Both the position numbers and the translations under genes were made by a program. Source: a virus (Duplodnaviria > Caudoviricetes). From it: a DNA stretch of 59,668 nucleotides. The DNA lies in the IMG/VR virus record IMGVR_UViG_3300031862_000785, positions 1-59,668 of that record; one strand, 5' to 3'. Of this stretch, positions 22,166 through 25,351 are shown in pieces. The notes beneath the pieces were generated by a model. That model did no database searches, was not told the origin of the DNA, and saw nothing but the letters and a program-made list of their open reading frames with translations. The stretch's first letter is position 1; every line of letters begins with the position of its first letter.

Positions 22166-25100
22166 TTACGGCCTCGCTTGCTGTAGTGCCAGGGCCTCTT
22201 CAGCGAAATTCACCACCACGTTGTGGTCTGGCGAGTGGCCTACGATGGCTTCTATCTCCACTGCCGTTCTCACCCCATGCTTCGTCTTTCCGTAGTAACT
22301 CTCCATGCGCTGCGATAGCTCCCAGAGCCGCTGGTCGCGAGGGGTGCGGTAGGCCAAGTCCAGGTAGAGCTTCGGGTCAATCCCGCGCATCGGCTCAAAC
22401 ATGGAGCGCCCGGCATAAGGCCCGCCGAGAGCCTTGGCCAGGGCCTGCTGATAATCGCCATAGCTTGCCATCCCGGCAAAGTCGCGCTTGTCCAGGCCGG
22501 AGGGAAACCCCATGATGCGCTCGAAGAGCTTCGGCGCCGTCTCGTCGGCCCCCGCGGCGGTAAGGCCTTCCTCTATCCACCTCTGCGCCGCCGTCGCGTA
22601 CTCGTGGGTCTTGATTGCCCCGTCCATCCCCATAGCATGGGTTGCCTCATGCACCAGGGTGTTGAAGGAAGAGGTCATTTCCATCTTCTGGTTCCGGGAA
22701 AGCTTTGCCCAGGAAGCTGCATCGTGCTTCAACATCGCATCCAGGCGATTCCTCGCCTCCGAGCCGATGCTGATGGCGCAGTCCCAGTCCTTGTGCCCGC
22801 CGAAGGCGCCTCGACCGGTGCGCAAGTCTCCATTCCATCCATGCTTCGCGCCCACCATCTCAGCCAGCTCATCGCAAGTGCGCCCCGTCAGTTCCAGGTC
22901 TGTCTTTGGCTTCGTGAGCTTGGGCGGAGCAGCGATGGGCCGAGCGGCGGCCACGGCCTGTCCCGTGCGCTTGCCGCGCTCCGCCACGCCGAAGAAAGCC
23001 GGCCCGCTGATTGCCCGATAGCCCGTTATTGCCCGGGCCGCCTCGGTGAGGGAGCTATAGACGCGGCCCTCGTAGTAGACCTTGCCTCCTTCGAGGATGT
23101 TCACAACATGTCGTTGGCCCTTGAAGGTGCGCTCCAGGACGGTGCCCGCGGGCAGAGCGCGCAGCTCTGGCTCCGGGATGGACACCCGCGTGGGTCTGAG
23201 GCGCCCTCGCGCCGCGGCAACCCCTGCCCGCCCCGCCCGCACAAGCTGCCGCTTTCCCGCGGCCCGGGCGACGCCGGGGAACTCCTTGCGGAAGCGCCGT
23301 TGGAGTTCGGCAGGGGACTTGTTCAGGAGGTCGGGCGAGATGATGCCCCGCTTCTTCTCGTCGTCGGTTGCGAGGCGTTCCACGAATGGCGTGAGCACGT
23401 GAACGCAGTTGTGCACCACGAGTCCCTCCACGACGTAGCTGTTGTCCTCCAGCACCTCAAGGTTGAAGACCCGACAAGTACGCCACCGCTCCGGTATGTA
23501 AGAAGTAGGCGCCCACTGCGTGTCCCTGGGTGCCGCGGGAGGCGACCCGTGACCATGCACTGCCTGATCTGTGGGAAGGCCATGAGCGTCAACGCCTCGG
23601 CGAAGCAGCGGCGACGCACCTGCGGTTATGCCTGTCGGGCTGAGTTGCAGTTCCGGCGTTCGCTGGCCCGCATGGAGGAACTCGTCGGCGAGCCACTCGA
23701 GCGCTACCTGCGACGCCGCTACGAGAAGGAGTGTTGCTCCATCAACGACCTCGCGCGCGAGCTCACCGGCGGTGACGTCCACACCATCCTCAAAGCCATG
23801 CGCCGACTTGAGGTGCCAGTCCGCCCCAGAGGCCATCAGGTCAAGGGCCTCACCAAAGAGACTTCTGACCTCTATGACCTCCACTCCCTTCGGATGCAGG
23901 TGTGCAATCCCTCGCAGCTCCGCCACACCCAGATCGCGCGAGCGCGCGGCCAGGCGCTGCGGAGCCGCCGCCGGCCTTCCCCCTCGGAGAAGAAACTCGC
24001 AGATCTGCTCGCCGGAAGCCATCTGACGGAGCGATGGCGCTTCCAAATGCCGTGGCGTGGCTACGTGCTCGACTTCGCGTTCCCGGCCGTTCTTCTTGAC
24101 GTGGAGCTCGATGGGAAGAACCACTGGAACTCCGACCGGCGCGCCCGTGACCGAAAGCGAGATGCTTTCCTGGCCGAGGAGGGATGGAAGGTGGTGCGCA
24201 TCAGCACGAAGCGCTTCGAGTCCAACCCACGGAAGGTCTTGGCCGAAATCCTGGCCCTCCTGGCCGACCGCCAGCGGGACATGGTGGCGAGCAACATGCC
24301 CAGCCGCTATCCAGCCCCAGGGGCACAGGAATGGGTGTTCTGGTGTCGCTGACACCTGCGATTCGCCGGCCATGAGCGTGACGACCGGCCCCTCGTAGGG
24401 ACGGGCGAACACTTCGGTGACGGCCCTGTAGCGACCGCGGTGAGTGAGCACCTCGTCGCCAACGCGTACCTTCTCAATCGGCACCAGGCCGTGGCGGGTC
24501 GTGACACGTTGGCCTGGCAACAGGCACCGCGGGTGAAAAGGCGGGCCGCCGTTGATGGCGGTGATCGGCGGATACACGGGGTGCGGCCCGTCGAGAGAGA
24601 CGACGGCATTCTCATAGTAGCGGCAGAAGTCTTCCGCGTTGTGCGCCGATACCTGGGCGAGGGTAACGCCGTGCTCGCGCAGGCGGTTGATGGTGCCCTG
24701 GGTCATCGCCTCGCGCGTGGTCGTGCGCGCCACCATTTCGGCATAGCGGTCGAGGGGCCACTGCCGCCCTAGCGCGTCCACGAACGTCGGCCTGCCCGCA
24801 GCAATCAGCCGCTGCTCCAGTTCGCGGCTGACCTCAATACGAGCGCGGCCGGCGGCAATCCCCCTGGCAACAGCGAGCATCCCCTCCCGTCGGAAGACGT
24901 CGTCCACGCGGCGGCCTATCTGCACGAGTGCCGCGCTTGTGGTCTGCAGCATAGACTCCATGATTGCCCGCGCGGCCTCTCGGTGCACCTGGGAGAAGAC
25001 TTCTCGCTCGCGGCGGCCTACTACCGTTGTTCCGCGTCGGCGCAGGTTGATTCCCGCGCGGCGGATGTTGCGAACTCCTTCGTCGGCGAACTCAAGCCCG

Positions 25101-25351
25101 ATGTCGTAGGCGCGGGGGATGTTGAACTCTATCCAGGCAGCAGCCTCGTCTCCGAGATCGGCGAGGATAGTCTGATACTGGCGCAGCAGGGCGACGGCCC
25201 GGCCTCGCTGCCCGGCGAGCGTCGCCGCGTCCGCGAGCACGTCCATCATGTCTGCCGCCCCGTCCCGATAGAGAGCAGCCAGAGAGTTGATCTCGCCGGT
25301 GAATGCTCGCCGGAACTCCTCAACTCGGCGACGGCCGATGGGTGGAGGCAC
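22166..25351 (-). CDS. MuF/minor head protein with intein, DUF2924/RAMA-like domain and C-terminal zincin metallopeptidase
   Basis: Follows the portal; GRQWPLDRYAEMVARTT, C..Y.N, PPFHPR|C..HVL; HEATH...WIEEG near the C-terminus. Confidence 0.85.
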   Translation of the reverse strand: MPPPIGRRRVEEFRRAFTGEINSLAALYRDGAADMMDVLADAATLAGQRGRAVALLRQYQTILADLGDEAAAWIEFNIPRAYDIGLEFADEGVRNIRRAGINLRRRGTTVVGRREREVFSQVHREAARAIMESMLQTTSAALVQIGRRVDDVFRREGMLAVARGIAAGRARIEVSRELEQRLIAAGRPTFVDALGRQWPLDRYAEMVARTTTREAMTQGTINRLREHGVTLAQVSAHNAEDFCRYYENAVVSLDGPHPVYPPITAINGGPPFHPRCLLPGQRVTTRHGLVPIEKVRVGDEVLTHRGRYRAVTEVFARPYEGPVVTLMAGESQVSATPEHPFLCPWGWIAAGHVARHHVPLAVGQEGQDFGQDLPWVGLEALRADAHHLPSLLGQESISLSVTGAPVGVPVVLPIELHVKKNGREREVEHVATPRHLEAPSLRQMASGEQICEFLLRGGRPAAAPQRLAARSRDLGVAELRGIAHLHPKGVEVIEVRSLFGEALDLMASGADWHLKSAHGFEDGVDVTAGELAREVVDGATLLLVAASQVALEWLADEFLHAGQRTPELQLSPTGITAGASPLLRRGVDAHGLPTDQAVHGHGSPPAAPRDTQWAPTSYIPERWRTCRVFNLEVLEDNSYVVEGLVVHNCVHVLTPFVERLATDDEKKRGIISPDLLNKSPAELQRRFRKEFPGVARAAGKRQLVRAGRAGVAAARGRLRPTRVSIPEPELRALPAGTVLERTFKGQRHVVNILEGGKVYYEGRVYSSLTEAARAITGYRAISGPAFFGVAERGKRTGQAVAAARPIAAPPKLTKPKTDLELTGRTCDELAEMVGAKHGWNGDLRTGRGAFGGHKDWDCAISIGSEARNRLDAMLKHDAASWAKLSRNQKMEMTSSFNTLVHEATHAMGMDGAIKTHEYATAAQRWIEEGLTAAGADETAPKLFERIMGFPSGLDKRDFAGMASYGDYQQALAKALGGPYAGRSMFEPMRGIDPKLYLDLAYRTPRDQRLWELSQRMESYYGKTKHGVRTAVEIEAIVGHSPDHNVVVNFAEEALALQQARP
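23408..24526 (-). mobile_element. Intein (373 aa, residues 276-648 of MuF)
   Basis: Block A CLLPGQRV...IEKVRVGDEVLTH; block B ATPEHPF; blocks F/G VFNLEV.EDNSYVVEGLVVHN, followed by +1 Cys. Confidence 0.93.
23549..24352 (+). CDS. DUF559/Vsr-like homing endonuclease encoded antisense within the intein
   Basis: GGGAGG at 23537-42, GTG 23549 (or ATG 23555); CxxC..CxxxC, HTH-like segment, then SPSEKKL..FQ..YVLDF..VELDG..HW..RD..RD..L...GWKVVRI. Confidence 0.85.
   Translation: MTMHCLICGKAMSVNASAKQRRRTCGYACRAELQFRRSLARMEELVGEPLERYLRRRYEKECCSINDLARELTGGDVHTILKAMRRLEVPVRPRGHQVKGLTKETSDLYDLHSLRMQVCNPSQLRHTQIARARGQALRSRRRPSPSEKKLADLLAGSHLTERWRFQMPWRGYVLDFAFPAVLLDVELDGKNHWNSDRRARDRKRDAFLAEEGWKVVRISTKRFESNPRKVLAEILALLADRQRDMVASNMPSRYPAPGAQEWVFWCR

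Follow-up and report, generated by a model that had tools for sequence, protein, structure and literature searches.

An intein in a phage MuF gene with a DUF559/Vsr-like endonuclease gene antisense to it and in codon register

The MuF Gene and Its Intein

The stretch of DNA analyzed here (the window) is a 59,668-base IMG/VR provirus record, IMGVR_UViG_3300031862_000785, and DNA related to it is present in sediment metagenomes. The minus strand of the window encodes, at positions 22166–25351, a MuF-type minor capsid (head morphogenesis) protein that is interrupted by an intein, and inside the intein, on the plus strand, lies a gene for a DUF559/Vsr-like endonuclease whose codons are in register with those of the intein frame. 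The MuF precursor, identified from the list of open reading frames (ORFs) and their translations, is 1061 aa long with no stop in its 1061 codons, and its predicted length once spliced is 688 aa. In profile searches it matched Phage_min_cap2 (1.5e-18) and DUF2924 (2e-14), with a weak match to Phage_Mu_F (0.065).

The N-extein (24527–25351, minus strand) ends in GGPPFHPR, directly followed by Cys1 of a contiguous, stop-free intein of 373 aa (23408–24526, minus strand). Besides Cys1, the N-terminal splicing half of the intein (residues 1–87; 24266–24526, minus strand) contains block B, with TPEH at residues 61–64 (24335–24346), and the minus-strand ORF matched Hint_2 at 5.5e-07. The C-terminal splicing half (residues 343–373; 23408–23500, minus strand) ends in VVHN, followed by Cys+1, and was detected by the TIGR01443 intein_Cterm model when the whole minus-strand protein was searched (20.7 bits, cut-off 15.6). 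H64 of block B, H372 and N373 were invariant in all eight inteins that were aligned. The C-extein (22166–23407, minus strand) starts with CVHVL and carries a DUF2924-like segment and a HEATH motif. Between the two splicing halves are 255 residues (88–342; 23501–24265, minus strand), hereafter the spacer, that are an antisense read-through of the endonuclease gene and in which no domain was found by Pfam or NCBIfam profile search. AlphaFold2 modeled the splicing halves as β-rich segments, consistent with a HINT fold formed by the two, with pLDDT values (predicted local distance difference test) of 71–91 for residues 1–87 and 83–89 for residues 343–373; residues 88–342 had pLDDT <50 throughout and are predicted to be unfolded. 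The original prediction, made from the letters and the ORF list, had proposed an intein with these coordinates and splicing blocks (Cys1, TPEH, HN/C) and a center lacking any recognizable domain, and both proposals are borne out by the profile matches, the structure model and contigs that lack the intein (see below).

The Endonuclease Gene on the Opposite Strand

The plus-strand gene (23549–24352) starts with GTG and encodes 267 aa. Profile searches on both strands agreed with the earlier suggestion of a DUF559-like protein: the plus-strand ORF matched DUF559 (PF04480) at 1.1e-15 (57.9 bits, cut-off 20.6), MTES_1575 at 1e-09 and PF18741 just above threshold (38.8 bits, cut-off 38.2). Its DUF559/Vsr-like nuclease domain (residues 134–238; 23948–24262, plus strand) also had profile matches in the PDB to 3hrl (3.4e-11) and 3r3p (1.2e-4). 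The AlphaFold2 model of the protein (mean pLDDT 83.5) comprises a zinc ribbon, helical DNA-binding parts and an α/β nuclease domain, and the fold of the last resembles 3hrl, a DUF559 protein, and the homing endonuclease I-Bth0305I (3r3p) with template modeling (TM) scores of 0.81 and 0.76, and Vsr (1cw0) with a target-normalized score of 0.40. The zinc-ribbon (CxxC...CxxxC) and helix-turn-helix-like part (residues 1–86; 23549–23806, plus strand) was modeled with pLDDT 86–97 and is conserved in four relatives (L006, L007, L020, and L021); Pfam gave a weak treble-clef match to DUF2116 (0.11). A Shine-Dalgarno-like GGGAGG, already pointed out in the original prediction, is present at 23537–23542 (plus strand), 6 nt 5' of the GTG at 23549. 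The endonuclease gene of L006 likewise starts with GTG, with AGGAG 7 nt before it.

The nuclease domain has a D...ExDGxxH...D motif, the residues of which we take to be catalytic. D175, E186, D188, H192, and D201/D205 were invariant in an alignment of five sequences; when nine sequences were aligned only D175 remained so, with L020, L021, and L024 deviating. The endonuclease of L021 lacks the G-K-x of the ELDGKxH motif.

The ORFs and their translations confirmed that both frames are open and that the same triplets are used on both strands, exactly in register as had been claimed. The stop codon of the endonuclease (24350–24352) is just beyond block B, and its last codons are antisense to ATPEHPF, as was also noted before. 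Disorder in the endonuclease model is confined to the last 12 residues, those antisense to block B. In the models, then, the folded parts of the endonuclease and of the intein appear barely to overlap on the DNA. An open antisense frame alone is unremarkable here, as the plus frame at this locus is open for 582 codons. What goes beyond chance at the window is the domain match, a reversed codon-position signal, and the recurrence of the layout in other loci.

Selection on the Two Strands

Base composition and substitutions were compared along the MuF gene. In the minus frame the GC content of third codon positions (GC3) exceeds that of first positions (GC1) over most of both exteins, being about equal elsewhere in them, and in both splicing halves. 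At codons ~320–600 (about 23550–24390) the difference GC3–GC1 flips to -0.07 to -0.20. A similar reversal was observed when the window was compared with the metagenome relative L006, with which it shares 76% identity in the endonuclease and about 56% in the spacer. Differences at minus-frame codon positions 1/2/3 numbered 59/47/139 in the N-extein, 9/7/22 in the N-terminal splicing half and 4/6/13 in the C-terminal half, i.e., third positions dominate, and 99/28/36 in the center, where minus position 1 is plus position 3. The pair L007/L020 repeats the pattern (100/101/151 at the plus positions), with an identity of 0.42 on the plus strand vs 0.28 on the minus strand. The pair of the window and L021 is saturated, too diverged for its codon positions to be read.

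The substitution pattern thus identifies the plus-strand protein as the one under purifying selection in the middle of the intein. Composition, the comparison with L006 and structure prediction are three independent lines that all favor the plus strand there, and because they agree, the overlap can be described as a working protein on one strand and a spacer on the other that only has to stay stop-free.

Natural Alleles Lacking the Intein

Contigs of four other runs, three of DNA and one a metatranscriptome, were placed on positions 22900–24900 of the window. In run X2, an independent sediment metagenome, three contigs that are 88–95% like the window each skip the intein with a net loss of 1119 nt, exactly its length. 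Their junctions join 23403, 23404, and 23408 to 24530, 24525, and 24531, with 7, 1, and 3 letters between, respectively. These net skips of 1119 nt therefore fix the intein boundaries to the nucleotide. Read manually, two of the three empty alleles show silent changes that leave the HPR|CVH residues of the junction intact. Extein depth was also several-fold higher than intein depth in runs X2 and X3, although contig depths are a crude measure. The presence/absence polymorphism in X2 is as expected of a mobile intein.

The third empty allele has, by manual reading, a different residue on each side of the insertion point, and could be a cleavage-resistant empty site.

The placed contigs also bear on whether the locus was assembled correctly. 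A local assembly inversion had been named in advance as an outcome that would overturn the original prediction, and a related concern is that the plus-strand ORF is one of the spurious long ORFs of GC-rich DNA, since long antisense ORFs are common here. We regard either as barely credible, and the artefact as refuted as far as present data go. The same layout is found on 14 other contigs from different samples, including the record of a cultured phage; the endonuclease region is covered by pieces from the three DNA runs; and one of these, a 597-nt contig with two differences from the window, has one end within the endonuclease gene and the other in the N-extein, spanning the N-terminal splicing half. 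The DUF559 score, well above its cut-off, and the confidence of the structure model speak against a spurious ORF. Positions 23503–23703 were uncovered in the four runs placed. The metatranscriptome run contributed five strandless pieces, which show presence at most.

Relatives of the Element

Relatives were collected from scans with the endonuclease, with the C-terminal splicing block, and of named phages. Counting the window, MuF inteins with an antisense DUF559 gene in them were found at 15 distinct loci. In 13 of these, with GC contents of 0.42–0.67, the intein is contiguous and the endonuclease gene in register (the window, L006, L007, L008, L020, L021, L023, L024, L030, L031, L034, L076, and L110). 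One (L080) is contiguous with the endonuclease in another register, and one (L005) is fractured. All 15 are in MuF or portal-MuF proteins, and all but L080 are inserted at the motif PPxHx(N/R/K)|C...HN|C.

One of the in-register members, L110, is the cultured Vibrio phage 1.265.O (MG592630.1). Its gene NVP1265O_07 (L110:2368–4461), labeled only “hedgehog/hint domain protein”, encodes a 697-aa MuF protein with an Ala1 intein at aa 256–596, and the antisense DUF559 gene at L110:2806–3543 is unannotated. More generally, gene callers give only the long intein-bearing ORF of such loci and overlook the endonuclease.

The scan with the splicing block gave 275 confirmed hits, of which 80 loci were kept. 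According to our own profile, a DUF559 domain is present in 26 of the 80: antisense inside the intein in six, antisense upstream of a mini-intein in two, and in frame on the sense strand in 18 (L033, L035, L039, L040, L045, L050, L066, L068, L079, L091, L093, L094, L097–L099, L101, L105, and L106). Mini-inteins at the same MuF site are among the remaining 54 loci. The 18 sense inteins are inserted at the MuF site HPN|C...HN|CRC in DNA of GC 0.32–0.55, mostly <0.46, and Pfam returned Phage_Mu_F, Intein_splicing and DUF559 for all four of the sense loci that were submitted.

Several loci differ in layout. In L080 (a Phage_Mu_F protein; L080:2463–3575) the antisense DUF559 gene uses TTA, CTA or TCA nine times, and the intein is stop-free at a GC of 0.58. 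In L048 (2025–2954) and L049 (961–2253) a multi-zinc-ribbon DUF559 gene is antisense in a 1360-codon MuF-like ORF and lies upstream of the HPN|CRC site, which is occupied by a mini-intein of 131 aa. A second antisense-endonuclease intein (C...TPDH...HN|C), around the DUF559 gene and at another site, could be made out by eye in these two loci, and it is not claimed here, as the sense strand had 0 Pfam families. The MuF protein of L021 has the C-terminal architecture of the window's C-extein (DUF2924-like segment and HEATH) and is longer (1275 codons).

Other searches returned little. A DNA search with the MuF gene found no match among 50,697 phage records, nor did tblastn with the endonuclease against the same records at 1e-5. 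At E <= 1 there were 16 weak hits, none an actinophage by name; the best, and the one analyzed further, was Vibrio phage 1.265.O. In a word-based protein search with the intein region the whole length was covered only by the window's own protein and that of L006; the other 32 of 34 hits cover 16–27% of the query. An intein scan of contigs yielded three loci (L001–L003) that share the first splicing block only, lack an antisense DUF559 gene and were set aside: they belong to a helicase-like ORF, to a secreted-type protein with an intein-like domain, and to a protein of the Rhs/PT-HINT type.

Avoidance of Three Codons in the Endonuclease Gene

Because the two frames share their triplets, the minus strand can acquire a stop only where the endonuclease gene has a TTA, CTA or TCA codon. 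For each locus we calculated the chance that no such codon occurs (P0) from the Leu and Ser codon usage of other ORFs on the same contig. The endonuclease of the window has none of the three codons, and with the provirus's own codon usage P0 is 0.18. The other members scored at GC 0.59–0.67 have P0 values of 0.06–0.57, L020 being set aside with a P0 of 1, as its reference ORFs contain none of the three codons. At lower GC the picture is different: P0 is 2.3e-3 for L031 (GC 0.53), 7.4e-5 for L023 (0.54), 2.3e-5 for L024 (0.45), 1.2e-5 for L076 (0.45), and 1.9e-8 for L110 (0.42), all rough values, and in these members at 42–54% GC no TTA, CTA or TCA was found where 5–14 would be expected. Summed over the 13 contiguous in-register members, 0 such codons were observed vs ~58 expected. 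The sense in-frame inserts served as a control. With three near-duplicates removed, the 15 inserts total 3714 codons, of which 158 are TTA, CTA or TCA (6–17 per insert), and loci of GC 0.44–0.55 are included. The contrast between the antisense members and the sense control is robust to the roughness of the P values.

The original prediction held that the overlap was tolerated because TTA, CTA and TCA are rare at this GC. This suffices for the window but not for the family, whose members at 42–54% GC would hardly lack these codons by chance (P0 2e-3 to 2e-8). Our analysis of the codons indicates that the intein frame is kept open by selection across the family, not by GC alone, and such maintenance argues for read-through of the precursor and splicing in cis.

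The fractured locus, L005, is on a viral contig of GC 0.44 (L005:4683–5678). Its portal-MuF ORF stops inside the antisense endonuclease gene, and a 37-aa C-terminal intein half, in the frame of the N-terminal part, starts from a separate ATG that lies 30 nt past the start of the endonuclease gene. The endonuclease gene contains nine TTA, CTA or TCA codons, vs 10.5 expected. Antisense to the endonuclease gene, in the third frame, which is out of register, L005 also has a 180-codon ORF (L005:4784–5326, minus strand) that may be a matter of chance.

L005 raises the question of whether the window gene is also functionally fractured, with the C-terminal intein half and the C-extein made from an internal start, splicing in trans, and a frame that is open incidentally at 65% GC. 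That a low-GC relative is built in this way, with little depletion of the three codons, and the window's P0 of 0.18 would both fit such a gene. We consider it improbable for the window, however. The gene is stop-free and a full precursor would be made whenever it is translated; no start codon with a ribosome-binding site was seen before its C-terminal half; and the avoidance of TTA, CTA and TCA across the family is sensible only if read-through matters.

A Probable Mobile Intein with a Separately Encoded Endonuclease

The explanation that best fits our data, in which we have good though not complete confidence, is that the intein is mobile and occupies a conserved motif, PPxHx(N/R/K)|C, of a phage MuF gene, and that its homing endonuclease is encoded separately, by an opposite-strand gene whose codons coincide with those of the intein's middle. 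Under this explanation, the late minus-strand message would be translated through ~255 codons of antisense endonuclease sequence to give an unfolded spacer, and the two HINT halves (87 and 31 residues) would fold together and splice in cis, releasing the 688-aa MuF protein, in which HPR and CVH would again be joined. From the plus strand, a message with a Shine-Dalgarno sequence and GTG of its own would yield the zinc-ribbon/helix-turn-helix/Vsr-like nuclease (DUF559, EDxHD-type). This would cut the intein-less MuF alleles of co-resident phages, and repair off the intein-bearing copy would spread both genes.

A number of points weigh against this explanation. For the window alone, an open minus frame would arise by chance about one time in six, and the exact P values are rough, as the reference codon sets are small for most loci (422–1877 codons) and were drawn up with a simple ORF rule. 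The pair L008/L023 is ambiguous, having no clear plus-strand signal (65/36/69), and the L008 endonuclease is missing its N-terminal part; from these sequences, some members of the family may be decaying. On the side of expression, a single metatranscriptome contig (24252–24389) overlaps the endonuclease gene, is strandless, and may be DNA. An AT-rich patch at 23493–23505 (plus strand), put forward in the original prediction as a weak candidate -10 region, has a similar counterpart in L006 and is unproven; it is not a consensus promoter, and a scan of 22900–24800 for consensus promoters returned 0 sites. Finally, for the window and its relatives alike, cis-splicing, transcription of the plus strand, and cleavage of the empty site are what we infer from the above.

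Some of these points would also be expected if the intein were fixed and immobile and the plus-strand ORF were not a homing enzyme but were decaying or re-purposed, for example as an anti-competitor nuclease or a source of regulatory antisense RNA. The truncation of L008, the missing G-K-x of L021, and the unclear signal of L008/L023 fit such a history, and homing and cleavage by the element of the window are themselves predictions. We nonetheless find it unlikely. This is because the plus-frame protein is clearly under purifying selection relative to L006, D175, E186, D188, and H192 do not vary in the five-sequence alignment, the same kind of habitat also contains alleles without the intein, and the fold of the nuclease matches that of a proven homing enzyme.

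A bolder proposal is that being antisense is a strategy favored by selection rather than a tolerated accident, with the same nuclease family using the same MuF site in two orientations and with co-adaptation at the level of codons. We put this forward as a doubtful but conceivable extension. The sense orientation is represented by 18 phages, mostly of low GC, and the antisense one by 15 loci with GC contents of 42–67%. If the proposal is true, an opposite transcript would free the timing of the nuclease from late capsid expression, making action early in mixed infections or in the prophage possible, and convergent transcription could restrain the nuclease. The original prediction had likewise suggested independent expression, for example in the lysogen, and control by sense-antisense interference, all of which are conjectural for the window. 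Proteins encoded on opposite strands by the same codons are rare in any genome; in this case one product only stays stop-free and the other carries the function.

Comparison with Known Systems

The antisense-endonuclease layout of an intein is not new. It was described in a 2025 preprint by Gosselin, Arsenault, and Gogarten (bioRxiv 10.1101/2025.01.02.630785, version of October 2025), which the list of known systems in the original prediction omits, although that list did include free-standing Vsr-like genes flanked by the halves of split inteins. In the passages available to us, to which all statements on these sources refer, Gosselin et al. report 63 actinophage inteins with non-canonical endonucleases, including “anti-sense VSR-like” ones in full inteins, and cite earlier antisense LAGLIDADG cases. 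As in the window, those inteins are contiguous, their splicing blocks flank an antisense gene of the VSR-like/EDxHD type, no structure is predicted for the in-frame middle, the core of the nuclease matches Vsr and 3R3P, and minor capsid hosts are included; their nuclease model matched over residues 144–267, a length like that of the window's protein. The window, with its antisense endonuclease ORF between the splicing blocks of an unbroken intein, is of the same type. It differs in being a sediment provirus, and, as it was compared through the preprint's text, it may or may not be of the same family and insertion site. The same passages carry nothing on avoidance of TTA, CTA and TCA, GC content (0 occurrences), a fractured antisense form, or in-frame VSR-like inteins, and they state that VSR-like endonucleases had no intein-associated reports except with split inteins. 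In view of that statement, the in-frame VSR-like MuF inteins found here may be undescribed. Our additions are the exact natural empty alleles, the controlled test of codon avoidance, the occurrence at one site of forms that are in frame or fractured, and the cultured phage. With the window and its relatives, the questions of precursor splicing, expression of the antisense nuclease, and homing of the pair become testable.

In the DnaX intein of cyanobacteria, a LAGLIDADG endonuclease that is out of frame or antisense was reportedly noted by Gorbalenya in 1998 and Gogarten in 2002, as cited by the preprints. A more recent account of the DnaX intein (Phillips, DeSimone, and Gogarten; bioRxiv 10.64898/2026.09.14.751524) describes frame-dependent selection and calls the endonuclease a +2 ORF. 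As in the window, the endonuclease is in another reading frame, constraint in the overlap acts on the nuclease frame and is relaxed in that of the intein, and intein-free and intein-bearing alleles coexist in populations. The nuclease family, host gene, and setting (cellular genomes) are different. Another out-of-frame case, from a 2025 paper, is an HNH gene hidden in an insert of a phage methylase.

Dassa et al. 2009 (PMC2677866) described “fractured genes”, in which a free-standing Vsr-like or GIY-YIG endonuclease gene is situated between split intein halves; in the passages seen, the endonuclease gene is on the same strand as the host at all loci and such nucleases were not known inside inteins. 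The window resembles these loci in having a Vsr-like gene at the endonuclease insertion point of a phage intein, but the gene is on the opposite strand and the host frame is unbroken, with no stop in 1061 codons. L005 is broken as the Dassa loci are, yet its endonuclease is on the opposite strand, unlike in all of them. I-Bth0305I (3R3P; Taylor et al. 2011, PMC3239194), the prototype of EDxHD homing endonucleases, shares its catalytic-domain fold and profile similarity with the window nuclease, but is encoded in an intron and, as far as tested, is unrelated to it in the N-terminal, DNA-binding part. A further comparison is with the 18 in-frame DUF559 inteins (L033, L035, L045, L098, and 14 more), which have the MuF site, related splicing blocks and the nuclease superfamily in common with the window. 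They differ in that the nuclease is a sense-strand domain of the intein, TTA, CTA and TCA are used freely, and they form a separate group in the tree described next (support 81).

Origin and Expression of the Endonuclease Gene

A tree of the nuclease part (46 rows; quick search, with Shimodaira–Hasegawa-like approximate likelihood ratio test (SH-aLRT) support only) separates all 18 sense copies (support 81) from all antisense copies (92), which fall on opposite sides of a branch; the split is not starred. Free-standing DUF559 genes are scattered on both sides, and the long branches of L009, L028, and L080 are unreliably placed. The tree fits few orientation events. The original prediction held that the endonuclease gene had inserted, inverted, into a mini-intein. 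This is plausible, as mini-inteins exist at the same site, and it recalls the model of Dassa et al., as given in the part of their paper seen, that a free-standing endonuclease gene invaded a mini-intein. However, because 18 of the 80 loci have inteins at the same MuF site that carry the nuclease family in frame, inversion of a resident domain is a live alternative. The tree would fit separate captures of free-standing genes as well as inversion, and we draw no direction from it.

The start of the endonuclease gene shows one further feature in two relatives. In L007 (2973–2995) and L021 (3972–3994), loci of 63–65% GC, a perfect TATAAT is found at the homologous place, 6 and 9 nt, respectively, before the ATG of the endonuclease. 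It may be a promoter for a leaderless, independently promoted message, although this is a hint only. In the frame of the intein spacer, the same TATAAT is made by an Ile-Ile pair.

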